A model generated the notes under the pieces. That model searched no databases and was not told where the DNA came from. It saw nothing but the letters and a program-made list of their open reading frames with translations. A DNA stretch of 64,000 bases from an uncultured Elusimicrobia bacterium (GTDB lineage Bacteria; Elusimicrobiota; Elusimicrobia; UBA1565; UBA9628), in contig CAIRTQ010000036.1 in assembly GCA_903881545.1 (NCBI GenBank), forward strand, positions 3,772-67,771, read 5' to 3'. Positions 12,886 through 42,340 of the stretch are shown here, piece after piece. Made by a program: the position numbers and the translations under genes. The stretch's first letter is position 1; every line of letters starts with the position of its first letter.

Positions 12886-13763
12886 CCGCCCCGGACGCCT
12901 ATGCCGCGCGGCTTGCCGACCCCTCTGACCCTGACGCCGCCCAGGCCTTCTGCATGCGCCTGGCCGCGGAGCGCCGCGCCTTCGGCTGGACGCGGCGACT
13001 GTCCCCCCGGCGCTTATGGCCGCACCTCGCGGCTCTCTACGCTTTCGCGCGCATCACCCGCGACTTGGTCGAAGATCCGGCCCACGAGAGCTCGCGGCCG
13101 CAGCGCCTGACGGACTGGCGCCGCCAACTGCAAGGCCTGGGGCGGGAAGCTCCGGAGCACCCGGTCTTCACGGCCTTGGGGCGCGCGGTGCGCGAATTCG
13201 ACCTGCCGGTCAGCCTACTCGACGACCTGGTGGCGGCCGGCCTGCAGGAAACGGGCCAGACCCGCTACGCGACCTACAACGAACTCCTGGCCCTTTGCCA
13301 CCGCGCTGCCGACCCGCTAGGCCGGCTCGTCCTCATGCTGCACGGCTGTCGCGACGAGGGCGTGCTGCGCTACTCCGACGCGCTGTGCTCGGGGCTGCTG
13401 CAGACCCATTTTTGGCGGGACCTGGCCCTGGACCTCGCGCGCGACCGCATCTACATCCCCGAAGAGGATTTCCGGGCCTTCGGCTACACCGAGGCGGACC
13501 TGCGCATGGGCGTGTGCAACGAGAAGTTCCGCGAACTCATGCGCTTCGAGGTCAACCGGACGCGCGCCCTCTTCGAGCAGGCCCGGCCCCTGCCGGAGAA
13601 GCTGCGCAAGCCCTTCGCCTGGCAGGTGACGCTGGCCTGGTACGGCGGCCGGGAGACCCTGCGGCAGATACGCAAAATGGGCTTCGACACCATCACGCAC
13701 CGCCCGGTCCTGGGCCGCTGGGATTGGCTGCCCCTGGCGCTGCGGACCTTATTGCGGCCATGA
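12882..13763 (+). CDS. Squalene/phytoene synthase family protein (HpnC-like)
   Basis: Isoprenoid synthase fold (YAFARITRDLVED...). ATGA overlap with the obg stop. Paired with a second paralogue, as in hopanoid hpnCD clusters. Confidence 0.7.
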   Translation: MTAPDAYAARLADPSDPDAAQAFCMRLAAERRAFGWTRRLSPRRLWPHLAALYAFARITRDLVEDPAHESSRPQRLTDWRRQLQGLGREAPEHPVFTALGRAVREFDLPVSLLDDLVAAGLQETGQTRYATYNELLALCHRAADPLGRLVLMLHGCRDEGVLRYSDALCSGLLQTHFWRDLALDLARDRIYIPEEDFRAFGYTEADLRMGVCNEKFRELMRFEVNRTRALFEQARPLPEKLRKPFAWQVTLAWYGGRETLRQIRKMGFDTITHRPVLGRWDWLPLALRTLLRP

Positions 13764-14587
13764 GCGGCGAAAGCCGGTCCAATTTCGCTCCGGCGTTCCT
13801 CTTTCTGCCCCGCCCCAAGCGCGAGGCGCTGCGTGCGGTCTACGCCTACTGCCGACTCATCGACGACATCGTCGACTCCGGCGCCTGGCCCGAGGCCGAG
13901 GCGCGGCGGCAACTGGATTTCTGGCGCGAGGAGGTGGAGCGCCTCTTCGCCGGCCGGCCCACGCACGCCGTGGCCCAGAGCCTCTTGCCGCATGTAGCGG
14001 CCTTCCGCCTGCCCAAGGAGGCTTTCCTGGAGATGATCCGGGGCTGCTCCCTGGACCTGGAGGGGACACGCTACCGGACACCCGAGGAATTGGAGAGCTA
14101 TATGCGCGGCGTGGCCTCCTCCGTGGGCCTGCTCGCCGTCGAGATCTTCGGCTACCGGTCCACCCCTCCCGAACGGATCCGCGAGTTCGCAACACTCTTC
14201 GGCTACGCCTTCCAATTGACCAACATCATCCGTGATGTGGGCGCCGACCTGGAGCTGGGACGCATCTACCTGCCGGCCAGCGACATGGAGGCGGCGGGCT
14301 ATACGATGAAATCCCTGATGCTGCGCGAGCACAACGCGGCTTTCGGCAGCCTCATGGCCGCGCTCTACCGCCGGGCCAAGACCTACTACCAGAGGGCGCG
14401 CAGCCTGGTGGATTTCCGCGATCGCCCCGGGCTCGTCGCGGCCGAGGTCATGGCCCATGTCTACGAAGGGCTCCTGGAGGAGATCCGCGAGAACCACTTC
14501 CGGGTCCTGTTCCACCGCAGCAGCCTGTCCTCCTGGCGCAAGACGGTCCTCGCCGGCAAGGGCTGGCTGTATTGCCATGGGCTCTGA
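13760..14587 (+). CDS. Squalene/phytoene synthase family protein (HpnD/presqualene diphosphate synthase-like)
   Basis: Starts MSGESRS. Asp-rich YCRLIDDIVD and second DxxxD-like motif. ATGA overlap with the upstream gene. Confidence 0.75.
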   Translation: MSGESRSNFAPAFLFLPRPKREALRAVYAYCRLIDDIVDSGAWPEAEARRQLDFWREEVERLFAGRPTHAVAQSLLPHVAAFRLPKEAFLEMIRGCSLDLEGTRYRTPEELESYMRGVASSVGLLAVEIFGYRSTPPERIREFATLFGYAFQLTNIIRDVGADLELGRIYLPASDMEAAGYTMKSLMLREHNAAFGSLMAALYRRAKTYYQRARSLVDFRDRPGLVAAEVMAHVYEGLLEEIRENHFRVLFHRSSLSSWRKTVLAGKGWLYCHGL

Positions 14588-16650: not shown

Positions 16651-18088
16651 CTAGACCTTCAGATTGAAGATCGCTTTATAGGGATCGACTATGCACCTGA
16701 TGAGGAAGCCCATATAATCAAATATCCTCGTTGGGCGGTAGCGCAAAACTCTATAGAACCCTGATATGACCCGGCCTACCAGGGTATTCCCCGACATAAG
16801 AAAAAAGTAATTCTTTGAGTCGATATTCGCGATGCGATGCATCCTGATCATTTCCGCCTTCGGGAATCGATCGGTCTCAAAAAACACGGGCGGCTTCGCC
16901 GACCAGGTCCCGTGCCTGCAATCGACTTCTTGGAAGAAACGGCCGTTGGTCTGGACCCAATCATACAGCGGAGTTCCGGCAAATGGCATGGCTATATACC
17001 ATCGCGCGGGGATATCCAGTTTCCTAATAAATCCCATAGACCGGTAGACGGAATCCTTGTCCGTCCCAATGAGTCCGATGATCATAAAAGCTTCTACGGG
17101 AATCCCATGTCTCTTGATTAGCTTGACGGCCTTTTCAATGTCATCCAAGCTCTCGCCTTTCCGCACATAGTCAAAGGTTGCTGGGTCGCCGTTCTCCACT
17201 CCGATCGCCACCCGACAACAGCCGGCATCTCTCAATAGGGACACCAATTCTTCATCGATCCTATCGGCGCGGATACCGTTCCCTAATGCGAACTGGATAT
17301 TGAATCCTCCGGCGATGATTCGTCTTAGTATCCCCTTCGCCCTCTCGAGGTCCAGCGTGAAATTGTCGTCGACAATGGAAAAATTGCGGCATCCGGACTT
17401 CTCAACAACGAATCTTATTTCCGCAATGACATTCTCTACACTTCTTCCCCTCCACTTCTTGTCCCAGACAATCCCGTTCATACAGAAAACACAGCTGTAA
17501 GGGCAGCCTCGACTCGATAAGATCGGATAATAATAGTGTTTGGCTTTTTGGATCGCCACATCCGGGTAAGGGAGGACATCGACGATCAGCAACGGCCGGG
17601 GCGGATTGAGCCTGATATTCCCACCGTCTCGATAGATGAGCCCAGCGATATCTTTCAATTGCTTCCTGCCCGATAATGCTTCCAACAAATCCGCTGTTGT
17701 CTCTTCCCCTTCCCCGTAGATGGCATGGTCAAAGACAGGATTATCCTGCAGGAAGGCTTCCTTATGAAGGGCAACAGAGCTTCCACCTGCAATATATACG
17801 GCATTACACTTCTTTCTCAACACCGATGCGATTTCCAGCGCGCTGTCATGGCTCAATTCCATGATTGTGATGCCGATGATGTCGGGCTTCCAAGCTATGC
17901 AATCCTGGTAATGCGCCTTAGCCAGACCAGAACCCTTCAACATCCTGTGCAGCCCAAGAGGCTTGGTGCCTATATTAGCTTCGAAATTCCGTATCAGTAC
18001 ATCATGTCCCTTCCCTTTGAGAAACGACGCGATATACGCTAGGCCGAGATTGTAATCGTCTAGTGGATTGATTAACAATACGCGCATT
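16651..18088 (-). CDS. B12-binding-domain radical SAM protein (class B rSAM)
   Basis: N-terminal cobalamin-binding Rossmann fold (MRVLLINPLDDY...). CPYSCVFC radical-SAM CxxxCxxC motif. Markedly lower GC than its neighbours. Confidence 0.8.
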
Positions 18089-18166
18089 TGTTTGTAGATA
18101 ACCCCACACTTGGCCCTTCGCCGCGCCCAGATCTTCCGTCCCTTTGCGCTCCTTCCCGCTTCAGGC

Positions 18167-18946
18167 CTAATCGCCGCGGAACGCCGGGCGGCGCTTTTCC
18201 AGGAAGGCCCGCAGACCCTCAGCGTAGTCGTGGCTCTCGAAGACCGTGCGGCGCAGTCCCTCGACCCGCTCAAATGTGTCGGGGCTGATGGGGTGCGCGC
18301 CAGAGAGGATGCGGAACTGCTCCTTGATGACGGCCACGGAAAGCGGCGAATGCGCCGCGATCTTGCGGGCCAGTCCTAAAGCGAAGCCCTCCAGCTCCTC
18401 GGCCGGAACCAGATGGTTGAGGATGCCGAACTCCAAGGCGCGCGGGGCTTCCACCGGCTCAGCCGTAAAGAACATCTCTTTGGCGCGGTTGAGGCCGAGG
18501 TGGTTGATGAAATGGAGTATGCCCGAGGCGTTGTACGGGATGCCCACCTTGACCGGCGTGATGGCGAAAGCCGCGGTGGCGTCGCCCACGATCATGTCGC
18601 AGGTTAACGCCAGGTCGCAGGCCCCGCCCCAAACGCCGCCGCGCACCATGGCGATGACCGGGCCGGGATAGGACTCGATGGCGCGCAGGGCGATCTCCAA
18701 GGGGCTGTCGTAGGAGAGCGGATCGTGCTGCGACTTTTCGATCTCCTCCAGATCAAGGCCCGCGGACCACACCTTCGCGCCCGGCGCCGCGGCCAGGATT
18801 ACCACAGGCACATGGCTAGCCTGTAGCTGCGCCAGGGCCGCAGTCAGCTCTTCAAGGAGCTTGGCGCCCAAGGCGTTGCGCCGGTCCGGATTGGAAAAGG
18901 TGATGCGGCCGATCTTATCTTCGGCCGAGACTTGGACGAATGCCAT
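18167..18946 (-). CDS. Enoyl-CoA hydratase/isomerase (crotonase) family protein
   Basis: 259 aa with crotonase-fold motifs (ITFSNPDRRNALG... AAPGAKVWSAGLDL). Confidence 0.85.
   Translation of the reverse strand: MAFVQVSAEDKIGRITFSNPDRRNALGAKLLEELTAALAQLQASHVPVVILAAAPGAKVWSAGLDLEEIEKSQHDPLSYDSPLEIALRAIESYPGPVIAMVRGGVWGGACDLALTCDMIVGDATAAFAITPVKVGIPYNASGILHFINHLGLNRAKEMFFTAEPVEAPRALEFGILNHLVPAEELEGFALGLARKIAAHSPLSVAVIKEQFRILSGAHPISPDTFERVEGLRRTVFESHDYAEGLRAFLEKRRPAFRGD
18295..18360. repeat. Right copy of the repeat flanking the rSAM gene (inside the crotonase gene)
   Basis: See 16578-16630. The right copy carries an extra 13 nt relative to the left copy. Confidence 0.6.
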
Positions 18947-18955
18947 GCCTGCCTC

Positions 18956-21274
18956 CTACTTCTTGGCCCGGATGGCCGCCAGCACCTTCTCCGGTGTGAA
19001 CGGCGGGTTGAACAGCCGCACCCCCACCGCGTTGTAGATCGCGTTGGCGATGGCCGGCTGGGGCCCGTTGATTCCGATCTCGGAAACCGACTTGGCCCCG
19101 AACGGCCCGTCCGCCTCGTAAGTCGGAATCAAGATCGTCTTAAACGGCGGCGCGTCCGCGGCCGAGAAGATCTTGTAGTTCCGGAACGAAGCATTGAGCA
19201 TGGCCCCCGAGGGGCTAAACCGCATCTCCTCCGTCAGAGCGTAGGAGAGGCCGTTCAAGACCGCGCCGTCGTTCTGGCCTTCCGCCAGCGCCGGATTGAT
19301 CGCGGTGCCGCAATCCACCGTGGAGACATAGTCCAGGATCGTCACCTGGCCCGTCTCCGTGTCCACCTCCACCTCGGCGAAGTGCGCCGCGAACGGCGGT
19401 GGCGAGCTCTGCGCGATGTGCGAGGCCACGCCCATGATCTGGTGCTGGTCGTGGTAGTAGAACGCGGTGTTGGCCACTTCCGCGAGGGCGCAGCTGCGCC
19501 CCGAGCGGCCCACGGCCTTGCCGTCCTTGAGGTCGATGTCCTCGGGCTTCTCATCCAGGATCTTGGCCGCGATCTTGAGGATCTGCTCCCGGGCGTGCAG
19601 GGCGGCCTTCTTGACCGCGTTGCCAGAAATGAAGGTGGTCGAGGAGGCGTAGGCTCCCACGTCGAAAGGCGTCAGGTCGGTGTCCGAGGACAGCACGATC
19701 ATGTCCTTGGCGGTCACGCCCAGGACCTCGGCCGCGATCTGGGCCAGCACCGTGTCGGAGCCCGTGCCCAGATCGGTGGCGCCCATGTGAAGGTTGAAGG
19801 AACCATCCTCGTTCATCTTGAGGAAGGCGGCGGCCATGTCCACCTCCGGGATGCCGGAGCCCTGCATCAGGCAGGCGCAACCCACGCCCCGGCGCTTGAC
19901 GCCCGTCTGCTTGGCGTTGCGCTTCTTCTTCTCTTCCCAGCGGAAGGCGGCCAGGCCTTGGGAGATGCACTCGTCCATGCCGCAGGAGCCGATCTTCTGC
20001 TCGATGCCCTCGCGGCCCTCGCCCATGGCCTTGAAGACCGGGGAGCCTTCGCCGGAGCGGATATAGTTCTTCTTGCGAAACTCGATAGGGTCGAGCCCCA
20101 GCTTCTCGGCCATCATGTCCATCTGGCTTTCCCATGCGAAGAAGCCCTGGGTGGCCCCGAAGCCGCGGTAGGCGCCGCCCACCGGGAGGTTGGTGTAGAC
20201 CGAGCGGCCGATGAATCGGCTATTCTTGGCCTGATACATGGGCAGGGTGTGGGAGCCCGAGCACATCATCACAGTGAGGCTGTGCGCGCCGTAGGCGCCG
20301 TTGTCGCAGTAGACTTCCATGTGCGCATCGGTGATGGTGCCGTCCTTCTTGGCGCCGGTCTTGAGCCGGAGGACGAAGGGATGGCGCGTGCGCGAGGAGA
20401 CGAAGGTCTCCTTGCGGGAGAACTCGATCTTGACCGGCCGCTTGGTCGCCAAGGTCAGGGCCGCGCAGATGGGTTCGAGCAGGACCTCCTGCTTGGAGCC
20501 GAAGCCTCCTCCGATGCGCGGCTTGATGACCCGGATGGACTTCAGCGGCAGCTGCAGGACGCGTGCCGTGATGCGCCGCGCGTGGAAGGGGACCTGGGTC
20601 GAAGTGCGTATGACCAGCCGGCCGTCGCCGTCGAAATAGGTGACGGTGACATGGGGCTCCAGCGCGCAGTGCTGGGCCCACTGGGTCTTATACCACTGGT
20701 CTACCACCACTTCGGCCTCGGAGAACCACTCCGACTCCTTGACCTCAAAGTCGAACTTGGCGCAAATATTGTGCTGGGCGTCCGGGATGTTCTTGGAGTC
20801 GGCCTCGTCGTGGATGACGGGCGCGCCCTCCTGGATGGCCTTCATGGTGTCGAAGACCGCGGGCAGGACTTCGTAGTCCACCTGGATCTTGGACAGGGCC
20901 TCCTCGGCAGCCTCGGGCGTCTCGGCGGCAACGGCCGCAATACGGTCGCCCACATAGCGGGCCTTCTCGCTGAGGACCAAGGTGTCGTAGGGCGAGGGCT
21001 CGGGGTAGCCCTGCCCGGCCGTGGTGTGGCGCACGCGGGGCAGGTCTTCGTGGGTCAGCACCGCCAGCACTCCCGGCACCTTCTTGGCCGCCCGGGTGTC
21101 GATGCTCTTGATGCGGGCGTGCGCGTGGGGGCTGAACAGTATCCGACCGGTGAGCAGGCCCCGAATGTCCAGATCGTCGGTGAACTGGGCCGTGCCGCAG
21201 GCTAGGGCCAGCGCGTCGATCTTCTCGACGCGGTGATTGACGACCGTGAATTCCCGCTTATCCGAGACGCTCAT
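18956..21274 (-). CDS. Xanthine dehydrogenase / aldehyde oxidase family molybdopterin-binding large subunit
   Basis: About 770 aa from MSVSDKREF. GGGFGSK motif of XDH-type enzymes rather than the CODH VAYRCSFR loop. ATGA overlap with the 2Fe-2S subunit. Confidence 0.85.
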   Translation of the reverse strand: MSVSDKREFTVVNHRVEKIDALALACGTAQFTDDLDIRGLLTGRILFSPHAHARIKSIDTRAAKKVPGVLAVLTHEDLPRVRHTTAGQGYPEPSPYDTLVLSEKARYVGDRIAAVAAETPEAAEEALSKIQVDYEVLPAVFDTMKAIQEGAPVIHDEADSKNIPDAQHNICAKFDFEVKESEWFSEAEVVVDQWYKTQWAQHCALEPHVTVTYFDGDGRLVIRTSTQVPFHARRITARVLQLPLKSIRVIKPRIGGGFGSKQEVLLEPICAALTLATKRPVKIEFSRKETFVSSRTRHPFVLRLKTGAKKDGTITDAHMEVYCDNGAYGAHSLTVMMCSGSHTLPMYQAKNSRFIGRSVYTNLPVGGAYRGFGATQGFFAWESQMDMMAEKLGLDPIEFRKKNYIRSGEGSPVFKAMGEGREGIEQKIGSCGMDECISQGLAAFRWEEKKKRNAKQTGVKRRGVGCACLMQGSGIPEVDMAAAFLKMNEDGSFNLHMGATDLGTGSDTVLAQIAAEVLGVTAKDMIVLSSDTDLTPFDVGAYASSTTFISGNAVKKAALHAREQILKIAAKILDEKPEDIDLKDGKAVGRSGRSCALAEVANTAFYYHDQHQIMGVASHIAQSSPPPFAAHFAEVEVDTETGQVTILDYVSTVDCGTAINPALAEGQNDGAVLNGLSYALTEEMRFSPSGAMLNASFRNYKIFSAADAPPFKTILIPTYEADGPFGAKSVSEIGINGPQPAIANAIYNAVGVRLFNPPFTPEKVLAAIRAKK

Positions 21275-21798
21275 TTCTTTGCTCCCTGGGGCTTGCGCAG
21301 CCGCCGGGCGGCCAGCAGCGCGCCCTCGACCTGCTTGACGTAACCCGTGCAGCGGCAGAGGTTGCCGTCCAAAGCCCGGCGCACCGCGCCCTCGTCGGGG
21401 TCCGGGTCCTCGTCCAAAAGGGCCTTGGTGACCAGTACCATGCCCGGGATGCAGAAGCCGCACTGCACCGCGCCCACGTCGGCGAAGGCCTGCTGGATGG
21501 GATGGGGCTGGTTCGGCGTGCCCAGGCCCTCGATGGTCGTCACGCGCCGGCCGTGCGCCTGGGCCGCGAACATCATGCAGGAAAGCGCGGGCTTGTCGTC
21601 CAAGAGGATCGTGCAGGTGCCGCAGTCGCCGCCGTCGCAGCCCTTCTTGACGCCCTTATAGCCCTCGCGCCGCAGGGCGTCCAGGAGATATTCGCCGGGG
21701 GCCACCTTCATGGCCACCGCCTTGCCGTTGATATTGACCAGGATATCGAGCTTGCCGTCCACTACCCGCAGCGTGCCGCGTCCTTTCTTTTGGGGCAT
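21271..21798 (-). CDS. [2Fe-2S] iron-sulfur subunit of the molybdenum hydroxylase
   Basis: CDGGDCGTC and CGFCIPG / CRCTGY cysteine motifs of XdhA/CoxS-type subunits. Confidence 0.9.
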   Translation of the reverse strand: MPQKKGRGTLRVVDGKLDILVNINGKAVAMKVAPGEYLLDALRREGYKGVKKGCDGGDCGTCTILLDDKPALSCMMFAAQAHGRRVTTIEGLGTPNQPHPIQQAFADVGAVQCGFCIPGMVLVTKALLDEDPDPDEGAVRRALDGNLCRCTGYVKQVEGALLAARRLRKPQGAKK

Positions 21799-21807
21799 GA
21801 TGTCTCC

Positions 21808-22659
21808 TCAGGCTTGAAAAGCTTCGCACAGCGCCCGCCGCACCAGCACTCCGGCCATCTCACGGGCGTAGGCCTTGGCCGCGGAACCGGCCGCAAGTTC
21901 CTCCAGTTCCGCGACGACCGCCGCGGCCGCCTTGCGGGCGATCGCCTCCGTCGCGGGCTGACCCGCGAGCAGGGCTTCGGCCCGAGCCATGCGCGCGGCC
22001 CGGGGGATGACGGCGCTCACCGCGATGGCGCCGCCGCGGCAGACGCCGCCCTTGCGGTCCACCACCACCACGCAACTGGCGTAGGATTCCCAATCGCTCT
22101 TCGTTAACGCGAGCCGCTCGGAGGCGGCAGCCCATTTTTTGGTGCGCGCCGGCACGCGGACCTCGGTCAGCAGATAGCGCGAGCCGAATTCGCGCATGCC
22201 CTCGGGCTTGAGCAATTCCGCGAAAGGCAGGACTTTCTCGCGCCGACCGTCCGTGCCCACGACCACGGCGTCCAAAGCCAGGAACAGGGGCGGGAGGTTA
22301 TTATAAGGATGCGCCCGCACCACGTTGCCGCCCATGGTTCCCATGCCCCGAGAGAACGAGTTGCTGCCGAAGCCGGCGGTCTTGGCGATGACCCCGCAAG
22401 CCCAGCGGGCCAGCAAGGGCGATTTCTCCATCTCGTCTATGGTGCACAAGGCGCCGATGCGCAGCCAGGCCTTGTCGGCCTTGATGTGCTTGAGCGGCAG
22501 GTCCGAGATGTCCACCACGGTGTCCACCGCGGGCGGGATGGCGCGCGCCAGGCGAGTGCCGCCCGCCACGATGAGAGCTTTGGATTTGAGGCGGTTCATG
22601 AGCCCCACCGCCTCCGAGACGCTGGCGGGGAAACAGAACTGCCGGATGTTGTTTTTCAT
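21808..22659 (-). CDS. FAD-binding subunit of the molybdenum hydroxylase (CoxM/XdhB-like)
   Basis: 283 aa with ALIVAGGTRL FAD-binding PCMH-type motif. Confidence 0.85.
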   Translation of the reverse strand: MKNNIRQFCFPASVSEAVGLMNRLKSKALIVAGGTRLARAIPPAVDTVVDISDLPLKHIKADKAWLRIGALCTIDEMEKSPLLARWACGVIAKTAGFGSNSFSRGMGTMGGNVVRAHPYNNLPPLFLALDAVVVGTDGRREKVLPFAELLKPEGMREFGSRYLLTEVRVPARTKKWAAASERLALTKSDWESYASCVVVVDRKGGVCRGGAIAVSAVIPRAARMARAEALLAGQPATEAIARKAAAAVVAELEELAAGSAAKAYAREMAGVLVRRALCEAFQA

Positions 22660-22674
22660 ATTGAGGGCTCCGGG

Positions 22675-22953
22675 CTAACCTCCCGATATGGGAGGGAAGA
22701 TGTGCAGGACGTTGCCGTCTTTGAGGCGGACCTTCTTGAGGGCGCCGCGGTCGAGGATCTCCGAGTCGAGCGCCAGGAGGAACTCGTTGCGCACCACGCC
22801 CTTGTCGTCGAACAGTATCTTGGCGACCTCGGAACCGCCCAGGGCCGCGACCGCCGCGACCGCGTCGGCCGCGGTGGCGCCCTCGACCCAGACCTGGTCC
22901 TTGCGCAGGCGCAGGCGCAGAGTGGTGTAGAGCTTGACCAGTATCTGCGGCAT
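22675..22953 (-). CDS. MoaD/ThiS-family ubiquitin-like sulfur-carrier protein (ends -GG)
   Basis: 92 aa from [13 protein letters not shown]..., beta-grasp-like, C-terminal PISGG. ATGA overlap with the upstream amidohydrolase. Confidence 0.7.
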   Translation of the reverse strand: MPQILVKLYTTLRLRLRKDQVWVEGATAADAVAAVAALGGSEVAKILFDDKGVVRNEFLLALDSEILDRGALKKVRLKDGNVLHIFPPISGG

Positions 22954-24320
22954 CAGGCCGCCTTCTCCAGCATCTCCTGGGAGAGCTTGTTGGCTTGGCG
23001 GGCCAACGCCACCTGGTCCACCAAAGCGAGCCGCCCATTCTCCACCACGGGACGGCCGTCGACTAGCACATGTTTGGCCCTGACGCCGGCGCCGCAGAAC
23101 AGCACGGCCGCCACGGGGTCGGACAAAGAGCCCGCGAAATCGATGTCGCTCAAATCGAAGATGGAAAGGTCGGCCGCCTTGCCCGGGGAAAGCTCGCCGA
23201 TATCGTCGCGGCCCAGCACCTCGGCGCCGCCGCGCGTGGCCAGCCACAGGGCGTCGCGCGCCGGCATGGAGTCCACGCCGGATTTGACCCGGGCCACGAG
23301 CATGGCCTGGCGCGCCTCGGGGAGCATGGCGGAGCTGTCGTTGGAAGCCGAACCGTCCACTCCCAAGCCCACGGGGACCCGGTCCTTAAGATACATGCGC
23401 ACGGGCGCGATGCCCGAGCCCAGGCGCAGGTTGGAAGAGGGGCAGTGGGCGACCCCGGTGCGGGTCTGACCCATGAGCCGCGACTCGGCCTCGTTCATGT
23501 GCACGCAGTGGGCAAACCAGGCCCGGCCCCCCTCCAGCCAACCCACGGACTCCATGTAGGCCAGGGGCCGCATCTTGTGGGTGGCGAGGCAGAAGGCCTC
23601 CTCGTCGATGGTCTCGGCCAGATGGGTGTGCAGGCGCACATCCCACTGCTTGGCCATCACGGCGGAGAGCTTGAGGAGTTCGGTCGTGACCGAGAAGGGC
23701 GAGCAGGGCGCCAGAGCGATGCGCGTCATGGCGCAAGGCTTGCGGTCGTGGTAGGCCTGGACCAAGCGCTCGCAGTCCCGCATGATCTCGTCCTCGGTCT
23801 GCACCACATCGTCGGGCGGCAGGCCGCCCTTGGACCGGCCGCGCGACATGGAGCCGCGGCAGGCGTGGAAGCGCATGCCCACGGAGCGCGCGCCCTCGAT
23901 TTCCCGGTCGATGAGGTCCGCGCTCTTGCCGCCGGGAAACAGGTAGAAGTGGTCGGAGCTGGTGGTGCAACCGGTCAGGAGCAGTTCGCCCAGTCCGACT
24001 TGGGCGCTCACATAAACGCCCTCGGGGGTGACATGGCGCCAGACTTCATAGAGATAGAGGAGCCAGTCGAAAAGCTTGCTATCCTGGACCGCAGGCAGGT
24101 TGCGCGTCAGGGTCTGATAGAGGTGGTGGTGGGTGTTGACGAAACCGGGCAGAACCACGCAATCCTTGGCATCGATGACGCGGTCGGCCCGGGCCTGGAT
24201 GTCCCGGCCCACCTGCTTGATGAGGTTTCCCTCGACAAGGATATCGCCGCCCGCAATCTCCTCGCGGGCGTCGTTCATGCGCGCGATGCGCAGGGCGTTC
24301 TTTATAAGGATGGTTTTCAT
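22953..24320 (-). CDS. Metal-dependent amidohydrolase of the chlorohydrolase / cytosine-guanine-deaminase (SsnA/8-oxoguanine deaminase-like) family
   Basis: 455 aa from [17 protein letters not shown] metal-binding motif and later HCVHM / DGSASND motifs. Confidence 0.8.
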
Positions 24321-24331
24321 GCAGGAATTAG

Positions 24332-25171
24332 ATGTGTCGCGCTTATGATAACATATCTTTTCGTGTGCTAACTTCAACGCAAAAGAAGCGATTGCGGGCC
24401 CTTTTGGGCTCGCGCCGGAGCCTGGACCAAGCCGGGGTTTCGTCGTTGGCCGCACAAGCCAAAGCCCCCCTGCGCGAGGTCGAGGCTTTCGCCTTGTCCC
24501 AGGGCGCGACTCCCAAGCGCTACGAACGCAACCTGGGCACCTTGGGCCGCGACGGCCAAAGCCGGCTTTTAGGGGCCTCGGTCTTGGTGGTGGGCCTGGG
24601 CGGCCTGGGCGGCCATGTGGTGGAGATGCTGGCGCGGCTGGGCGTAGGCCGCATCACGGGCGTGGACGGAGACAGCTTCGACGAGACCAACCTGAACCGC
24701 CAGATCTTCGCGGACTTGGAGAACCTGGGCCGCCCCAAGTCTGAAGTGGCGCGGGAGCGCGTGCGGCGCATCAACCCGGCCGTGGAGTTCACACCTCATG
24801 CCGCGCGCCTGGAGACCTTGGGGCCTGGGATGTTGCGGGGCTGCGGCTTGGCGTTCGACTGCCTGGACAGCATCCCGTCAAGGCTCGCCTTGGCCGCGTT
24901 GTGCTCGCGCGCCCGAGTGACCTTGGTGCACGGCGCCATAGCGGGCTGGTGCGGACAGGTGGGCGTCTGCCCGCCGGGCGGGGATCTGTTCCACAAACTC
25001 TACGGCGAGGCCAAGGGCCCGCGCGGGGCGGAGGTAGAGCTGGGCAATCTGCCCATGACCGCGGCCGTTGCCGCCAATCTGATGGTGGCCGCGGGTCTGC
25101 CGATCCTGCTGGGCAAGCCGGTGCCGCGGCGAAGCCTCCGCTTCTTCGACCTGCAGGAAGGAAACCTCTAG
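24332..25171 (+). CDS. ThiF/MoeB/HesA-family E1-like adenylyltransferase (start uncertain)
   Basis: [11 protein letters not shown] nucleotide-binding loop with [13 protein letters not shown]. Divergent to the amidohydrolase-MoaD operon. Only 11 bp separates the two ATGs, so the true start may be an internal TTG. Confidence 0.7.
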
Positions 25172-26235
25172 TCTCCCAACACGGACTCCGGGCGCAGGTA
25201 GTGGCAGGTGTAGCCGTGCGGGTGATTCTTCAAGTAGTCCTGATGGCTTCCCTCGGCCCGGTAGAAAGGCCCCGCCTTCACGATCTCGGTGACTATGGGG
25301 CCGCCCCAGTGCCCTTTCTTATTCAGATGCGCCTTCATGGTCTCAGCGGCCTTGCGCTCGTCCTCGGTGTGGTAGAAGATGACCGAGCGATAGGAGGTGC
25401 CAACATCATTGCCTTGCCGGTCCGGGGTGGTCGGATCATGCATCCGAAAGAACCAGCGCAAGAGCTGTTCAAACGACAATTTATCCGGATCGAAGACCAC
25501 GCGCACGGCTTCCGCGTGGCCGGTCTCCCCAGAATGAACATCCTCATAATGGGGGTCCTTCATGTTGCCCCCGATGTAACCGACATCGGTGCGCAGAACC
25601 CCAGGGACATTGCGCAAGATCGCCTGCATGCCCCAGAAGCAGCCGCCCGCTAGCTCGACGATCTCTTCGCGGGGAGTCTTCTTGGCGGCGGCTTTCTCCG
25701 CCACCCCGAACGACTTCAGGTATCGGCCATAGCCTTCCGCCTCTAGGCGGTCCAGGGGGATGAACCGTAGCGAGGCGGAGTTGATGCAATAGCGCAGCCC
25801 GGTCGGCGCGGGGCCGTCGTTGAAGACATGGCCGAGGTGCGAGCCGCCCTGGCGCGAGCGGACCTCCGTGCGCTCCATCCCGAAGGACCGATCCGTCTTC
25901 TCAGTGACCTCGTCTTTGGCGATGGGCTTGGTGAAGCTGGGCCAGCCTGACCCGGAATCGAACTTGTCGAGCGAAGAGAACAAAGGCTCGCCGCTCACCA
26001 CGTCGACATATATGCCGGGCTCATGGTTGTTCCAATAGGCATTGTGGAAAGCAGGCTCCGTCCCCCCCTGGCACGCCACCTGGAACTGTTCGGGCGTCAG
26101 CTTGCTCCTCAAATCGTCATCCGAGGGCCGCTGGTAGGAAGTACCGGTCTTATCCATGTTCATATCCTGGGCCGACATGCAGAGTGTTCCAAAGGTCCCG
26201 ATCAGCAATAGCGTCGCTCCGAACCCTGATGGCAT
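25168..26235 (-). CDS. msrAB: Bifunctional peptide-methionine sulfoxide reductase MsrB-MsrA with signal peptide
   Basis: MsrB SelR signature ([29 protein letters not shown]) followed by MsrA GGCFWG. N-terminal hydrophobic leader. Confidence 0.85.
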
Positions 26236-26270
26236 CACATATTCTCCTATATTCTGCATATTAAGAGATA

Positions 26271-26294
26271 ATATCCCGATGGATATCCCGATGG
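26271..26294. repeat. Perfect 12-bp tandem duplication ATATCCCGATGG x2 in the msrAB / GDT1 divergent region
   Basis: Read directly from the sequence. Creates two in-frame ATGs (MDIPMDW). Confidence 0.8.
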
Positions 26295-26872
26295 ATTGGA
26301 AACTGTTCTTATCCCTGTTTGCGTTGATCTTTGTCGCGGAGCTTCCCGGGAAGTCCACCTTGGCCAGCCTCCTCATGGCCGCGCGCGCAAAGCCTCTGCC
26401 GGTCTTCCTCGGCGCCTGCGCGGCCTATGTCGTTCATAGCGCGCTCGCCGTGGCGGCAGGGAGTTTGGTCGGGCTCCTGCCGGTTCGCCCGGTCCAAATA
26501 GCGGTTGGGACGATCTTTCTGGCCTTGGCAGTGTTCCTCTGGCGGCATCAAGGGATGACCCCATACGAAACGAGCGCGTCCGGAGCGCGCTCTACCAAGA
26601 CAATGATGACGGCATTCACCGTGGTCTTCATCGCACAATGGGGCGACCCGACCCAGATAGCGACCGCGGCCCTGGCCGCCAAGTACGCCTCCGCGCCCTG
26701 GACAGTCTTTCTTTCAGCGACGCTGGCGCTTGGGGCCGTCACCGGCCTGGCCGTCATCATCGGCCATCACGCCAAGACAAAATTCCATCCGGCCGCTCTT
26801 CAGAAGGTCGCTTCAGTTATCTTCGCCGGGGTCGGGCTCGTCCTCCTGGCCCAAGCCATCCGCCATCCCTGA
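26279..26872 (+). CDS. GDT1/TMEM165 (UPF0016) family cation transporter
   Basis: Two E-x-G-D-K/R-T/S motifs (AELPGKST and QWGDPTQIA), 6 TM segments. Confidence 0.75.
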
Positions 26873-30674: not shown

Positions 30675-31661
30675 CTAGCCTTTATTGCCGCCACCGAAAA
30701 AACGCTGCCACCACGGGGACTTCTCCGGGATGTCCAGCGCGGCGCGCACGACCCGTAGGCGCTGCGCGGCCGGGACCTCCGCGTCGCCGCAGACTCCGGC
30801 GGAGAAGCGGACCCGCACCAGCAGCGCTGGGGACTCCGCGCTGGCGCCGCCGGCGGGGGCCGCCTCGATGGCCTCCACCAACGCTGGGATGGGCGCGGGG
30901 CCTTTTTCTGAATGCCCGCCGAGGAACTTGGCCAGATACTTGGCGATGTCGCGGTCATCGGCGATACAGGCTGCCGCCATATCCCCGGCGCGCAGTTCGG
31001 CCGCGGGCATGCCGTCCGGGTCTTGTTCCAGGTTGACCGTCAGGATCAACAGCTCGTCAAGCCAGGGGCCGCGGACCACGGCGGGGCGCACCCGGTCCAG
31101 ACGCGCCGCCGCCGGCTGCAAGGATTGGAATTGCCCCATGTCCAGGACGTCCTTCTTCAGTTTGAGTTCGAGCGCCCGGGTGCGCAGGCTGCGCCTCAGC
31201 AGCTCGGCCAGGTCGGCCTGGACCGTCTCCGTCCCTCCGGGCTGGGAGTCAAAATGCCCGGCCGCGGCGCTGGAGCGCAGGTGGTTGGCCACCGCGACCT
31301 CCAGTTCCAGGCTCTCGTTGGGCAGGCTCCCTTCCCACAGGCGGCAGCCGCACAAGTGCTTCTCGAACTCGAACCAATCCTTCTCCAGGCTCACGGCGCA
31401 GACCGCGGGGTTGAAGGAAATCACCGCCCGGCAGCGCAAGACCGCGCGTGACTTCGTGTTGAGCACCGCGAGCAGAAGCCCATAAAGGTTCTGCTCGGAA
31501 TCGATGAGCTTGCCCTTGAAGACCACGACGCTCTTGTGCAGCTTGGGGATGGCCTTGACCGCCTCCTCAACGACATAGCCACACATCTCCAGGGCGAGCT
31601 CCGCCTCGCCCCGGTCGCAGCCGGTCTCCTCCATCAGCAGGACGATCTTATCCGGGATCAT
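30675..31661 (-). CDS. Hypothetical protein with N-terminal UBA-like helical domain
   Basis: MIPDKIVLLMEETGCDRGEAELALEMCGYVVEEAVKAI resembles NAC/UBA-type three-helix bundles. The rest has no recognisable family. Confidence 0.4.
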   Translation of the reverse strand: MIPDKIVLLMEETGCDRGEAELALEMCGYVVEEAVKAIPKLHKSVVVFKGKLIDSEQNLYGLLLAVLNTKSRAVLRCRAVISFNPAVCAVSLEKDWFEFEKHLCGCRLWEGSLPNESLELEVAVANHLRSSAAAGHFDSQPGGTETVQADLAELLRRSLRTRALELKLKKDVLDMGQFQSLQPAAARLDRVRPAVVRGPWLDELLILTVNLEQDPDGMPAAELRAGDMAAACIADDRDIAKYLAKFLGGHSEKGPAPIPALVEAIEAAPAGGASAESPALLVRVRFSAGVCGDAEVPAAQRLRVVRAALDIPEKSPWWQRFFGGGNKG

Positions 31662-32566
31662 GCCGCCGGCCTCTCCGGGGCGCGCGGATGCGCCTTCCGG
31701 TAGACCTCTTGAAGCTTCTCCAAGGAGATATGGGTGTAGATCTGGGTAGTAGCCAGGCTCCGATGGCCGAGCATCTCCTGCACCGCGCGCAGATCACAAC
31801 CAGCGTTGAGGAGGTGCGTGGCGAAGCTATGCCGGAAAGCGTGCGGGGTAACGGACTTCAGCCAGCCGGCGCGCCGCAGCCAGGCCTTGAGGATGAAGGC
31901 CACCCCCGCGTCCGAAAGCCGCTGCCCCCGCGCGTTGACGAAGAGCGGGCTATCGCCGCGGGCCGAGCCGGGACCTCTCTGGCGCAGGTAGTCGCGCAGC
32001 CCAGTCAGGGCGGAAAGTCCCACGGGCACGATCCGCTCCCGGGAGCCTTTCCCGAAGACCCGAACGAATCCCGATACGAAGTCCACATCGCCGACGCTGA
32101 GCGCCGCGAGCTCCGAACGGCGCAGGCCGCTGGAATAGAGCAGCTCCAGGATGGCCCGGTCGCGCTCCCGGAAAGGGGAGCGGGCCGGCGCGGCGCGGCT
32201 CAAGAGCCCGCCCATCTCGCCCTCGGTCAGAAACTTGGGCAGGCGCGCCTCCTTGCGGGGCAGAGGCAAGGCGCAAAAAGGATCCCCGGTCATGGCGCCC
32301 TCCTGACGCAGGAACCGGAAGAAGGCCCGCAGTGCCGATATCCGGCGCAGGACCGTGTTGCGGCTGTAGACGACCGCGCCGGCGCCGGCTCCGGGCAGCT
32401 CGGCCAGATAGGTCCGGACCTGGTTGCGGGATATGTCGGCCGGCCCGGCATCGGGGAAGCGCTTGAGGAACCGCTCCAGATCCGACTCATAGGCGCGCAA
32501 GGTGTGGGCCGAATAGTTACGCGCGCCCCGCAAGTGCATGAGGAACTTCCGCGCCCAATTGCGCAA
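31658..32566 (-). CDS. Tyrosine recombinase XerC/XerD family (chromosome dimer resolution)
   Basis: R..H..R..Y catalytic residues (HAFRHSFATHLL...LGHRSLATTQIYTH). Sits in the housekeeping dprA-topA-xer context. Confidence 0.85.
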   Translation of the reverse strand: MRNWARKFLMHLRGARNYSAHTLRAYESDLERFLKRFPDAGPADISRNQVRTYLAELPGAGAGAVVYSRNTVLRRISALRAFFRFLRQEGAMTGDPFCALPLPRKEARLPKFLTEGEMGGLLSRAAPARSPFRERDRAILELLYSSGLRRSELAALSVGDVDFVSGFVRVFGKGSRERIVPVGLSALTGLRDYLRQRGPGSARGDSPLFVNARGQRLSDAGVAFILKAWLRRAGWLKSVTPHAFRHSFATHLLNAGCDLRAVQEMLGHRSLATTQIYTHISLEKLQEVYRKAHPRAPERPAA

Positions 32567-41021: not shown

Positions 41022-41191
41022 TATATACTCCTATATAATCGCAAGTTAATCCCCAGCATCCAGGCCCCATCAGCCGCCTAGCAAATACTATAATAGCACA
41101 CCCCCCGCCGAATTACACGCCCAAAAACTTGTCATGAGATTCTCTTTCTGGTATTATTAACTTACATTTCCGAAAGGATAAGGTGCCCACA

Positions 41192-42340
41192 ATGAAAAAG
41201 GCAATAAAAAGACTGCTCGCAATAATGCTGTGCGCGCTGGCGCCCTTGACGCTTTCTCCTGTATGTTCGGCCGACACTCCGGCCGTCGATAAGTTTCTTA
41301 CCACGGAAGGGGTTGCGCTGAATTCCTACATTAAATCCATCATCGCCGGGACTGGCTATCCCTATTGGTCTGTCGGGGACCACCTGGATTCCGTAATGGC
41401 GAACTATAAAGCCACCGGGGACCGCCGGCTCCTCTCCTTCCTGGTCGACGCAGGAGACGGGCTTCTATTCCTGACCAGCACCAAACTCGGCCGGAAGGAT
41501 GAATATAGGAAGAAATTGGTCGATACCTGGATCTCAAGCCAGTACAGTTGCGGAAAGAACTACGCGGAAATGGTGCACGCCATGGTCATGATCGCTCCGG
41601 TGGCCGAGGCGTACGCGATCCTGCTGTCCGGGCCGCAGCTCGATGCCGGTATGCGGGCGAGGATCAGCTCGGGCGCCACGGAGATGGAGAAGGTCTTCAC
41701 CACCTTCAACGACCTCTACAACTCCCAAGGGTTCTACGCAATTTCACCCCTGGAGAAATCCGCCGCGTGCTCTGCCTTCAAGCTGCCGCCGAAGAGCGTC
41801 ATGCCCCTGAACATGGTTTCGGCGGCCGCGCGCGCGCATTTCCACATGTACTATGTCGAAGCCGCTTTAAACCAGGGCGCTAAAAGCGACTTTCATAAGG
41901 CCCGGTTCACAAGCATCGCGAAATATGTAAGATCTCAGATACACACGACTACCTGGAAAAATAAGTCGGTTTTGGTATGGAAATATGCTGCTACCCAAAG
42001 CTGGGCGGAGGATCCTTCCCACGGCTACCTGACGCTACAGCTGGCGCAAGCGCTTTATCAGAAGGGCTGGGGCCCCTTCACCAAGACGGACATGACCAAC
42101 CTGGCGAATACTTTTGACATGCTTTACAATGGCTTCCTTAATTCAAAAGTACGCACGAAATTCTCCGTGAACAGCGCCCTGAGTTCGGCGGTACCCGATC
42201 TCCTGCCCCTGACGCGCTATGTCGGGCTTTGTGTCTATGAGAAGAGCATAAAAGCCAATGTGGCCACACTAAGGGCTGCCGGGGCCAAAAACACCTTGGG
42301 CGATTCGCTCTTTGCACAAGCCTCGGTTTCCTGCCCCTGA
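41192..42340 (+). CDS. Secreted hypothetical protein
   Basis: Signal peptide MKKAIKRLLAIMLCALAPLTLSPVCSA. Helical-repeat-like body. No family recognised. Lower GC. Confidence 0.5.
   Translation: MKKAIKRLLAIMLCALAPLTLSPVCSADTPAVDKFLTTEGVALNSYIKSIIAGTGYPYWSVGDHLDSVMANYKATGDRRLLSFLVDAGDGLLFLTSTKLGRKDEYRKKLVDTWISSQYSCGKNYAEMVHAMVMIAPVAEAYAILLSGPQLDAGMRARISSGATEMEKVFTTFNDLYNSQGFYAISPLEKSAACSAFKLPPKSVMPLNMVSAAARAHFHMYYVEAALNQGAKSDFHKARFTSIAKYVRSQIHTTTWKNKSVLVWKYAATQSWAEDPSHGYLTLQLAQALYQKGWGPFTKTDMTNLANTFDMLYNGFLNSKVRTKFSVNSALSSAVPDLLPLTRYVGLCVYEKSIKANVATLRAAGAKNTLGDSLFAQASVSCP

Follow-up and report, generated by a model that had tools for sequence, protein, structure and literature searches.

A sulfur-carrier-like protein and a MoeB-class E1 in a putative molybdenum purine oxidoreductase locus of Elusimicrobia

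We propose, with moderate confidence, that a locus within a 64-kb stretch of Elusimicrobia DNA (the window, meaning the whole of the DNA analysed) is an operon for an XdhD/YgfM-type molybdenum purine oxidoreductase that has its own sulfur carrier and E1 for cofactor maturation, namely molybdopterin synthesis. The link of the MoaD-like protein and the E1 to this enzyme of the xanthine dehydrogenase (XDH) family is real and recurs. What appears to be new here is the occurrence of a sulfur carrier and its activating enzyme inside a purine molybdoenzyme locus. Because tungsten enzymes with a dedicated carrier and E1 are already known, we view the locus as a variant and not as a new kind of system. 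Its genes are as follows.

22953-24320, minus strand: aminohydrolase, 8-oxoguanine deaminase family; opens the operon (Pfam Amidohydro_1; NCBIfam NF006055)
22675-22953, minus strand: 92-aa MoaD/SAMP1-type beta-grasp sulfur-carrier-like protein ending in FPPISGG (Pfam ThiS; AF2/Foldseek; synteny)
21808-22659, minus strand: FAD-binding subunit, YgfM-like (Pfam FAD_binding_5, CO_deh_flav_C)
21271-21798, minus strand: 2x[2Fe-2S] subunit (Pfam Fer2, Fer2_2)
18956-21274, minus strand: molybdopterin-binding catalytic subunit, XdhD-type (Pfam Ald_Xan_dh_C, MoCoBD_1, MoCoBD_2)
18167-18946, minus strand: crotonase-fold protein, scoring as methylmalonyl-CoA decarboxylase (NCBIfam NF008506)
24332-25171, plus strand: ThiF/MoeB-class E1-like adenylyltransferase ("type A"), divergent from the operon (Pfam ThiF, 151.8 bits)

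Reading of the open reading frames and Pfam searches confirmed all seven genes and their domains, and the picture drawn in the first-pass annotation, of six closely coupled minus-strand genes with a ThiF-family E1 head-to-head, agrees with the coordinates, domains and junctions. The six genes run closely packed from aminohydrolase through MoaD-like, FAD, 2Fe-2S and Mo genes to crotonase. Read directly, the MoaD-like start lies on the aminohydrolase stop (TGATG, 1-nt overlap), 15 nt separate the MoaD-like and FAD genes, 9 nt containing GGAG separate FAD from FeS, the FeS and Mo genes overlap by 4 nt (ATGA), and 9 nt containing GGAGG precede the crotonase. The start codons of the E1 and aminohydrolase genes lie 11 nt apart on opposite strands. 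The arrangement is not due to chance, as it is seen again in dozens of independent Elusimicrobia contigs. Among the ORFs tested over the whole 64 kb, none carried an XdhC, MocA, MoaA/C/E, MoeA, JAMM or E2 domain, in accord with the earlier statement that XdhC, JAMM and E2 are absent, and the 92-aa protein is the only GG-ended beta-grasp ORF of the window.

The molybdoenzyme, the aminohydrolase and the crotonase

Domain profile searches bore out the first-pass annotation broadly for gene identities, and its recognition of a link between the MoaD-like/E1 pair and an XDH-family enzyme stood, while its assignment of SsnA, its 4-hydroxybenzoyl-CoA reductase (4-HBCR) model and its role for the crotonase in CoA chemistry did not. 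The three subunits carry the Pfam domains and the GGGFGSK motif of a molybdenum hydroxylase, as it had reported, and by sequence comparison we assign them to a purine oxidoreductase of the E. coli XdhD/YgfM type. Identity of the Mo subunit to its E. coli counterparts is higher for XdhD (38%) than for XdhA (34%). Its SVSEIG motif contains the catalytic Glu, it carries KAMGEGREGIE, a loop specific to XdhD, and its E419 aligns with Glu606 of XdhD, where XdhA has a gap. Against the NCBIfam XdhA_XDHase model it scored 715.8 bits (cut-off 780). The FAD subunit, which is under the cut-off of every NCBIfam equivalog, matched YgfM (28%) and none of the other E. coli proteins tested, among them XdhB, and the 2Fe-2S subunit shares 42% identity with the FeS subunit of E. 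coli, XdhC.

The aminohydrolase had been called SsnA/guanine-deaminase-like. It is indeed an aminohydrolase, but it lies far under the cut-offs of the NCBIfam SsnA (152 bits, cut-off 444) and guanine deaminase models, is 24% identical to SsnA and 28% to GuaD of E. coli, and passes the 8-oxoguanine deaminase model NF006055 instead (637.7 bits, cut-off 532). The deaminase and Mo enzyme probably handle oxidised purines; in one plausible route, the former would convert 8-oxoguanine to urate and the latter would interconvert urate and 2,8-dioxopurine.

These assignments bear on a highly improbable reading, which goes back to the first-pass annotation and in which the carrier and E1 supply sulfur for a small-molecule product such as a thio-purine or thio-heterocycle, while CoA thioesters are the substrates of the Mo enzyme, within a 4-HBCR-like pathway that includes the crotonase. 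The best solved relative of the Mo subunit by sequence is the 4-HBCR alpha subunit (1rm6_A, 373 bits), the fold matches of the MoaD-like protein include carriers of the CysO and BexX type, which serve to insert sulfur into small molecules, the MoaD-like gene is translationally coupled to the aminohydrolase, and the crotonase follows the Mo gene at 9 nt. A 4-HBCR-type enzyme was nevertheless rejected: the Mo subunit reaches only 570 bits against that NCBIfam model (cut-off 995), under its scores for the XdhA and XdhD-type models, and possesses the XdhD-specific Glu loop, while the YgfM-like FAD subunit, of 283 aa, shows in its sequence neither a cysteine cluster nor the extra Fe-S insertion of 4-HBCR. 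Furthermore, no CoA ligase, CoA transferase, sulfurtransferase or ThiG/CysM-like acceptor is present in any locus examined. The crotonase had been taken to point to CoA-thioester substrates. It follows the Mo subunit in only four closely related loci (window/L066, L018, L023 and L060) and passes the methylmalonyl-CoA decarboxylase cut-off of NF008506 (368.8 bits, cut-off 257), and is therefore uninformative on such substrates. It is probably co-transcribed with the operon and, being limited to those four loci, is a lineage-specific passenger outside of the conserved module.

The carrier, the E1 and their genomic neighbours

The 92-aa protein ending in PISGG belongs to the ThiS/MoaD family by Pfam (ThiS, 30.3 bits, cut-off 22.5), as first described. 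Its profile matched Ta0895, a MoaD-related protein of T. thermophilus and SAMP1 in the PDB, and its AF2 model (pLDDT 91.5) found SAMP1, MoaD and CysO as best Foldseek matches; the C-terminal GG is invariant. The E1 is under the cut-off of all NCBIfam ThiF, MoeB and UbaA equivalogs, and its best matches among solved structures are ThiF and MoeB of E. coli. It keeps GxGxxG, NLNRQ, the conserved Lys and the Asp of DCLD, and thus an intact adenylation site, and lacks the CxxC zinc motifs, whose Cys residues are replaced, and the crossover-loop Cys. An N-terminal helical extension of approximately 55 aa is conserved in homologues, which supports a predicted start at or near 24332. A GTG at 24365 offers an alternative start.

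The FAD subunit gene directly follows the MoaD-like gene in 24 of 26 distinct sequences at least 60% identical to that of the window, the other two being without usable downstream context, and a head-to-head E1 is present in 8 of the 15 loci with enough upstream flank. Neighbourhood conservation therefore upholds the proximity of a GG-ended MoaD-like protein and a ThiF-type E1 to XDH subunits. The earlier remark that such pairs are not normally wired to XDH-family enzymes likewise agrees with our literature search, which found no published description of this link or of a sulfur carrier and E1 in XDH operons. In sister lineages the order is aminohydrolase, MoaD-like, MocA-like NTP transferase, XdhC, FAD, FeS and Mo (L038/L039, L040 and L044), once with a YgfK-like gene inserted after the MoaD-like gene (L041); L029/L037 keep the L038-type order from the MoaD-like gene onward, with no upstream aminohydrolase found. 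In Riflebacteria a MoaD-like gene is followed by mocA (L014), and one protein, P0369, is an apparent MoaD-like/MocA fusion. These neighbours place the MoaD-like protein among known Moco maturation genes.

More distant relatives of the carrier (30-47% identical) are directly upstream of tungsten aldehyde ferredoxin oxidoreductase (AOR) genes (L068 and L085; L081-L083 by locus layout), and in L061, L062 and L071 the MoaD-like gene comes directly after a MoeB-like gene and has no enzyme gene in its vicinity, which would be expected of a generic molybdopterin-synthase carrier. The Zn-less E1 type follows a 74-aa MoaD in all three of the other loci examined, including one in which an AOR gene comes first (L032) and one inside a cluster of MoeA/MoaA, MoaC, MOSC, MoaB/MogA-type (MoCF_biosynth) and ModABC genes (L030). 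Other Elusimicrobia have at the same head-to-head position a canonical MoeB, 36-42% identical to that of E. coli over its full length, so that two different MoeB-class enzymes share this place.

Cofactor synthesis and the alternatives to it

The carrier/E1 pair most likely makes the molybdopterin dithiolene for the enzyme of its own operon. The E1 would adenylate the C-terminal Gly of the 92-aa carrier, which a persulfide donor would convert to a thiocarboxylate; together with a MoaE encoded elsewhere, the carrier would then provide both sulfurs of the dithiolene, so that cPMP becomes molybdopterin, and the pterin would take up Mo, probably be cytidylylated, and be inserted into the Mo subunit. 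It is also plausible that the pair is simply the generic MoaD/MoeB of the organism.

Several observations run against molybdopterin synthesis. The carrier is under the curated cut-offs of the SAMP1, moaD_arch and moaD models, and its clade stands apart and is small, with 25 clusters at E<=1e-10 in a set of 1.84 billion representatives; the E1 has neither the zinc site nor the loop Cys found in ThiF and MoeB. The closest relatives of the Mo subunit from lineages other than Elusimicrobia and Riflebacteria (L015 and L016) have no MoaD-like neighbour. The MoaD-like gene is preceded by an aminohydrolase in most related loci, and in L028 this pair adjoins YgfK-like and SsnA-like genes with no XDH genes nearby; it is thus tied to the aminohydrolase more constantly than general cofactor synthesis requires. 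Finally, MoaE, MoaA, MoaC and MoeA are absent from the 64-kb window and from about 10 kb around every XDH-linked locus, leaving the partner needed for molybdopterin synthesis unobserved.

Some of the same observations would suit an unlikely alternative, in which Moco bound by XdhC or by the enzyme receives its terminal sulfido (Mo=S) ligand from the carrier thiocarboxylate that the E1 forms; this would replace the persulfide of a cysteine desulfurase, which serves in Rhodobacter. Members of the XDH family require a sulfurated cofactor, the window cluster lacks XdhC, and XdhC is one gene away from the carrier in the sister-lineage order; the carrier clade is bound to this enzyme outside of moa operons, and no MoaE is seen nearby. 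Nevertheless, relatives of the carrier flank AOR-type tungsten enzymes, for which we know of no XdhC-type sulfuration, or stand alone after MoeB. MoaD and thiocarboxylate are absent from a 2026 review of Moco sulfuration, and new chemistry would be required where a known one suffices. Use of a thiocarboxylate for either the Mo=S ligand or a thio-heterocycle is less parsimonious than ordinary molybdopterin synthesis because the MoaD-like gene lies with mocA and xdhC in sister lineages, its more distant relatives are AOR-linked MoaDs, and the E1 types are MoeB itself or an E1 linked to AOR and Moco clusters.

Very unlikely, too, is a role of the MoaD-like protein as a SAMP-like, ubiquitin-like modifier that the E1 would attach to the enzyme or to other targets for regulation, or else as a chaperone or subunit of the enzyme with no catalytic part. 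SAMP1, both modifier and sulfur carrier, is among its nearest structural matches, the adjoining E1 supports activation, and its fixed position just ahead of the enzyme subunits would fit an assembly factor. Against this, neither the window nor the related loci examined contain a JAMM/MPN protease or E2, bacterial precedents for ubiquitin-like conjugation are, to our knowledge, few, and the presence of MocA, XdhC and MoeB genes as neighbours indicates cofactor chemistry.

Relation to known systems

An AOR-linked MoaD class was assigned to dedicated pterin-cofactor synthesis by Iyer, Burroughs and Aravind in 2006, whose survey does not list an XDH-family link (PMC1779556); AorD/AorE of Aromatoleum (PMC6365974) and TK1065 and TK2118/TK2117 of Thermococcus (PMC11323500) are further precedents. 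As in those modules, a GG-ended MoaD-family carrier lies strictly next to an oxidoreductase that requires a pterin, in many cases accompanied by a MoeB-class E1, and away from the main moa operon, and both the carrier family and the E1 type of the window recur beside AOR genes. In contrast, the client enzyme of the window belongs to the XDH family of Mo enzymes and presumably contains sulfurated Moco/MCD rather than the bis-pterin tungsten cofactor of AOR, and the carrier gene stands between those for a purine aminohydrolase and the FAD subunit. The canonical MoaD-MoaE/MoeB (E. coli) and SAMP1/UbaA (Haloferax) systems share the beta-grasp fold, the C-terminal GG and the intact E1 adenylation site, and the carrier tail is of the archaeal FPP(I/V)SGG type found in this comparison group; they differ in the carrier scores, the unobserved MoaE, and the CxxC pairs and N-terminal domain of the E1.

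In E. coli the reductive uric acid pathway includes an ssnA-ygfM-xdhD module (Li et al. 2025, PMC12507026). The window shares with it the order of aminohydrolase, FAD subunit and Mo/FeS enzyme as well as the XdhD and YgfM similarities, and the gene content of L028 recalls it; however, the 2Fe-2S domain of the window is a separate subunit and not fused, and its aminohydrolase is not SsnA. The E. coli cluster in turn lacks MoaD and MoeB, with mocA and the XdhC-family gene yqeB nearby. XDH operons may embed maturation genes for XdhC/PucA-type chaperones and MocA/PucB-type cytidylyltransferases. The Elusimicrobia loci likewise place cofactor-maturation genes beside an XDH-family enzyme, with MocA and XdhC following the MoaD-like protein in the sister lineages, whereas the window has lost or relocated these two and keeps only the carrier and E1.

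Cluster layout and conservation of its gene order

The seven genes of the cluster all lie where the first-pass annotation had placed them, with the following Pfam assignments:

18167-18946, minus strand: crotonase (ECH_1)
18956-21274, minus strand: Mo subunit (Ald_Xan_dh_C, MoCoBD_1, MoCoBD_2)
21271-21798, minus strand: 2Fe-2S (FeS) subunit (Fer2, Fer2_2)
21808-22659, minus strand: FAD subunit (FAD_binding_5, CO_deh_flav_C)
22675-22953, minus strand: 92-aa ThiS/MoaD-family protein with the end FPPISGG (the MoaD-like carrier)
22953-24320, minus strand: amidohydrolase (the aminohydrolase)
24332-25171, plus strand: ThiF-family protein (the E1)

As read from the sequence, the aminohydrolase and MoaD-like genes overlap by 1 nt (TGATG), the MoaD-like and FAD genes are separated by 15 nt and the FAD and FeS genes by 9 nt that include GGAG, the FeS and Mo genes meet at ATGA, and the Mo and crotonase genes lie 9 nt apart with an intervening GGAGG. 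The divergent starts of the aminohydrolase and the E1 are 11 nt apart, and an E1 start at or near 24332 is supported by the conservation of its N-terminal extension among homologues. Scanning for promoters and terminators revealed nothing informative within the operon. Pfam scans of the 64 kb identified the other ORFs as ordinary housekeeping genes; none of them encodes XdhC, MocA, MoaA/C/E, MoeA, a JAMM protease or an E2, in agreement with the earlier statement that an XdhC-type factor, JAMM protease and E2 are absent, and the 92-aa gene is the sole GG-ended beta-grasp ORF in the window. In NCBI, close homologues of the cluster proteins are named as coming from uncultured Elusimicrobia of high GC.

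The gene that immediately follows the E1, and is convergent with it, encodes a methionine sulfoxide reductase in which MsrB and MsrA are fused and the N-terminus carries a hydrophobic segment (25168-26376, minus strand). Elsewhere, a tyrosine recombinase gene is found beside topA and dprA (31658-32566), and a region of lower GC (0.55; 39420-42340) encodes a TraF_2-like protein and an ORF without a Pfam match. The longest ORF at 13016-14587 (plus strand) contains a squalene/phytoene synthase domain in residues 253-508 only; because its Pro/Arg-rich N-terminal 250 aa are probably untranslated, its true start is likely to be later.

A word-indexed protein search with the carrier returned 59 homologues of 64-99% identity, every taxon-named one of which was from Elusimicrobia, and wider relatives were reached by a profile search of representatives and a metagenome scan. 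From neighbourhood look-ups, a species-representative genome scan and the metagenome scan, 55 distinct MoaD-like sequences with flanks were collected and annotated by local tblastn (related loci, designated by L numbers). The MoaD-like gene is truly wired to the xanthine dehydrogenase (XDH)-family enzyme: the neighbourhood that the first-pass annotation had proposed comparing across genomes is conserved, with the FAD subunit gene following directly in 24 of the 26 sequences that are at least 60% identical to that of the window, the remaining two having no usable downstream context. In most loci the aminohydrolase gene directly precedes the carrier gene. On a low-GC (48%) Elusimicrobiales contig (L028, 3175-10279), the aminohydrolase/MoaD-like pair occurs with no XDH genes downstream; its neighbours are a divergent YgfK-like reductase, a methyltransferase and an SsnA-like aminohydrolase, a setting that connects the pair with the reductive urate pathway. 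Mobile-looking inserts separate the E1 or aminohydrolase from the MoaD-like operon in L009 (7834-8447 and 4444-5210) and L026 (4600-9900), comprising toxin-antitoxin pairs (PhdYeFM/ParE, barnase/barstar) and other small mobile-looking genes in these lineages. The Mo subunit gene of L009 (DMEZ01000056, 11678-14099) is split into ORFs of 578 aa and 169 aa and is intact on the near-identical metagenome contig L010 (11678-14002); the split is probably an assembly or frameshift artefact.

In sister lineages (L029/L037, L038/L039, L040, L044), the order is aminohydrolase, MoaD-like, MocA-like NTP transferase, XdhC, FAD, FeS and Mo, with no aminohydrolase found upstream of the MoaD-like gene in L029/L037; the L038/L039 contigs span 0.6-1.4 Mb. 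L041 has the same order with a YgfK-like gene inserted after the MoaD-like gene. MocA and XdhC were recognized by the Pfam domains NTP_transf_3 and XdhC_CoxI/XdhC_C, and this fuller maturation set lies at 10001-11703 of L029 and 8632-15502 of L038, and is also present in L040, L041 and L044. The Riflebacteria locus L014 contains aminohydrolase, MoaD-like and MocA genes with the enzyme 2.4 kb downstream, and P0369, a Riflebacteria protein, is an apparent MoaD-like/MocA fusion. These sister-lineage and Riflebacteria layouts therefore place the carrier among known XDH-family maturation genes. It is common for MocA and XdhC genes to be embedded in such operons. L029 and L041 also have a second, divergent XDH-like set (~32% identity), located between the maturation genes and those of the orthologous enzyme.

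Identity of the catalytic enzyme, aminohydrolase and crotonase

The aminohydrolase, which the first-pass annotation had labelled SsnA/guanine-deaminase-like, passed the NCBIfam model for 8-oxoguanine deaminase (NF006055, 637.7 bits, cut-off 532) and scored far below the cut-offs for both SsnA and guanine deaminase, which rules out the SsnA identity and favours the 8-oxoguanine deaminase family. The metal-binding HxH of amidohydrolases is present in its sequence (NTHHHLYQ). For the Mo subunit, the closest curated NCBIfam models are of the XdhA type. Because it falls below the cut-offs of the XdhA-type (XdhA_XDHase NF043082, 715.8 bits, cut-off 780), XdhD-type (TIGR03313, 611.6 bits, cut-off 1101.9) and 4-hydroxybenzoyl-CoA reductase (4-HBCR) alpha models (TIGR03194, 570 bits, cut-off 994.55), the Mo subunit is placed by sequence in a distinct subfamily, close to the XdhA and XdhD types and with an unfused FeS domain.

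In comparison with E. coli K-12 proteins, the Mo subunit shares 38% identity with XdhD and 34% with XdhA, the FeS subunit is 42% identical to E. coli XdhC, and YgfM was the sole match of the FAD subunit among the E. coli proteins compared. In a three-way alignment, the Mo subunit retains the catalytic Glu (in SVSEIG), and its E419, in the loop KAMGEGREGIE, aligns with Glu606 of XdhD at a position where XdhA is gapped. E. coli XdhD-YgfM reduces urate to 2,8-dioxopurine with NADH, and Glu606 has been proposed as an orienting residue in this enzyme (Li et al. 2025, PMC12507026). The order aminohydrolase, FAD, FeS/Mo also mirrors the E. coli ssnA-ygfM-xdhD module. Because of these identities, the YgfM match, the gene order and the Glu606-type loop, the catalytic part of the cluster is assigned to a new member of the XdhD/YgfM type of purine oxidoreductase together with an 8-oxoguanine-deaminase-family enzyme, with exact substrates that we infer. 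This assignment would tie an 8-oxoguanine-deaminase-family enzyme to the recently described enzymes of the reductive urate pathway, in an uncultured phylum.

The crotonase had been taken in the first-pass annotation as a sign of CoA-thioester substrates, a reading that did not survive comparison with related loci and curated models. Only in the window/L066 pair, L018, L023 and L060 does this gene come after that of the Mo subunit, and because of this confinement we regard it as a lineage-specific passenger that is uninformative on substrates; its product passed the model for methylmalonyl-CoA decarboxylase (ScpB/YgfG, NF008506, 368.8 bits, cut-off 257). The 4-HBCR alpha subunit (HcrA) is the best solved relative of the Mo subunit by sequence, because no XdhA- or XdhD-type structures have been solved. 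The 4-HBCR models are far from being reached (for the gamma-subunit model, 152.8 bits against a cut-off of 257.8), the 283-aa FAD subunit has no Cys cluster able to hold the extra [4Fe-4S] of HcrB, and the XdhD loop is present, so that a 4-HBCR/CoA-thioester pathway was rejected. We consider it very improbable that the carrier serves a CoA pathway or inserts sulfur into a small molecule. Just downstream of the crotonase in the window is a gene for a B12-binding radical SAM protein (16651-18090, minus strand; local GC 0.54 compared with ~0.65), and in L018 and L023 no such gene was found beside the crotonase.

The carrier and two types of E1

An AlphaFold (AF2) model of the carrier shows a beta-grasp fold with a flexible C-terminus (pLDDT 91.5), for which the best Foldseek matches are SAMP1, mycobacterial and E. 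coli MoaD, and CysO (TM 0.7-0.84). The protein reaches the Pfam ThiS cut-off (30.3 bits, cut-off 22.5) and falls below the curated cut-offs for SAMP1 (29.6 bits, cut-off 60), moaD_arch (28.1, 49.5) and moaD (20.4, 66.15). All 27 diverse family members compared keep the Gly-Gly that immediately precedes the stop codon. Searched as a profile, the family matches Ta0895, a Thermus MoaD-related protein, SAMP1 homologues and Pyrococcus MoaD. The clade is small, with 25 clusters at E<=1e-10 among 1.84 billion representatives, and its named members belong to Elusimicrobia and Riflebacteria. Two proteins of the representative library contain a MoaD-like domain of this clade in a fusion, in P0308 with a CoA-binding (CoA_binding_2) domain and in P0321 with a PHP-like region of ~400 aa.

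The E1 that the first-pass annotation had seen head-to-head with the operon recurs in that position in 8 of the 15 loci with enough upstream flank. The window protein matches Pfam ThiF with 151.8 bits and has intact adenylation residues (GLGGLGG, NLNRQ, the conserved Lys and the Mg-binding Asp of DCLD) that align to E. coli ThiF, and it reaches none of the named-equivalog cut-offs, the best being adenyl_thiF (115.5 bits, cut-off 275), with MoeB PRK05690 at 108 (266). It represents one of two E1 types. Type A, in the window, L021, L033, L054 and L066, consists of proteins of ~270-279 aa that have no CxxC zinc motifs and no crossover-loop Cys, the chain ending before the second motif position. 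These have an N-terminal extension of ~55 aa (24332-24500 in the window) that is conserved across ~275-aa homologues of several lineages, contains the invariant residues R20, L21 and A40, and has no Pfam domain match. Type B, in L009 (6936-7682), L011 (4903-5637) and L049, is a canonical MoeB with CLRC and CPVCG that has 36-42% full-length identity to E. coli MoeB.

Type A homologues of ~275 aa are numerous, and those among the matches listed are 49-72% identical. All three type A homologues whose context was examined lie directly after a 74-aa MoaD/ThiS gene; the two genes follow an AOR (tungsten aldehyde ferredoxin oxidoreductase) gene in L032, stand alone in L031, and end a cluster of MoeA/MoaA, MoaC, MOSC, MoaB/MogA-type (MoCF_biosynth) and ModABC genes in L030. 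The presence of two E1 types in the same head-to-head position suggests replacement or independent recruitment, and this recruitment of two different MoeB-class enzymes to one position argues strongly for a functional carrier/E1 pair. It argues, in addition, that the pair performs molybdopterin-type chemistry.

Proposed role of the carrier/E1 pair

MoaD genes strictly adjacent to AOR genes, often accompanied by MoeB, have been read as dedicated to pterin synthesis for the tungsten cofactor (Iyer, Burroughs and Aravind 2006, PMC1779556), and later examples of the AOR type include AorD/AorE (PMC6365974) as well as TK1065 and TK2118/TK2117 (PMC11323500). The carrier/E1 principle is already established for AOR enzymes. 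Among our loci, MoaD-like relatives with 30-47% identity lie directly upstream of AOR genes in L068 and L085 and, by locus layout, in L081-L083. Directly before the MoaD-like gene of L061, L062 and L071 is a MoeB-like gene, with no client enzyme nearby, as would be expected for a carrier that serves molybdopterin synthase in general. L068 (3-6120) has a partial aminohydrolase homologue (57% identical), followed by the MoaD-like gene and two tandem AOR genes, so that the pairing of aminohydrolase and MoaD-like genes may reach into AOR contexts as well.

For function, the decisive neighbourhoods are those that place the carrier among XDH-family maturation genes, those of its AOR-linked relatives and those with a MoeB-like/MoaD-like pair but no client enzyme. 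As the most parsimonious reading, we propose, with moderate confidence, that the carrier/E1 pair, either as a dedicated paralogue or as the only MoaD/MoeB of the genome, makes the molybdopterin dithiolene for the enzyme's cofactor together with MoaE encoded elsewhere. The E1 would adenylate the carrier, which would then be converted to a thiocarboxylate and, with MoaE, would supply the dithiolene sulfurs of molybdopterin. In the XDH family, the pair would thereby correspond to the AOR-MoaD-MoeB module. Three observations fit this proposal poorly: no MoaE gene is near any XDH-linked locus, or in the window or any fetched locus, and we infer its partnership with the carrier; the carrier and aminohydrolase genes stay paired even where no XDH genes adjoin them, as in L028; and no MoaD-like gene neighbours the closest relatives of the Mo subunit in other phyla. 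No other genes for the molybdenum cofactor (Moco) were found next to the XDH-linked MoaD-like copies in the window or the fetched loci.

Alternatively, the carrier might be a dedicated thiocarboxylate donor of the terminal Mo=S ligand and not, or not only, a molybdopterin-synthase small subunit, acting alongside XdhC in loci that have it and taking the place of the XdhC/cysteine-desulfurase route in those that, as in the window, lack it. Such donation would be a new way of sulfurating the molybdenum cofactor and would matter much more, but no such route appears in a 2026 review of Moco sulfuration, and we consider it unlikely. A role of the carrier in ubiquitin-like conjugation or as a chaperone is quite unlikely; conjugation was rejected on finding no JAMM/MPN peptidase or E2 among the window ORFs or the Pfam-annotated neighbours of the related loci.

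In the literature searched, no XDH-family operon was found described as containing MoaD/E1 genes. If the pair does make the dithiolene, the principle of an enzyme-carried MoaD/MoeB would extend from the tungsten AOR enzymes to the xanthine-oxidase family, and the cluster would define a small MoaD clade of Elusimicrobia and Riflebacteria together with a Zn-less, N-terminally extended MoeB-class E1. This clade and E1 type would be useful for annotation and for the heterologous expression of XdhD-type urate-metabolising enzymes, in which cofactor supply is limiting.
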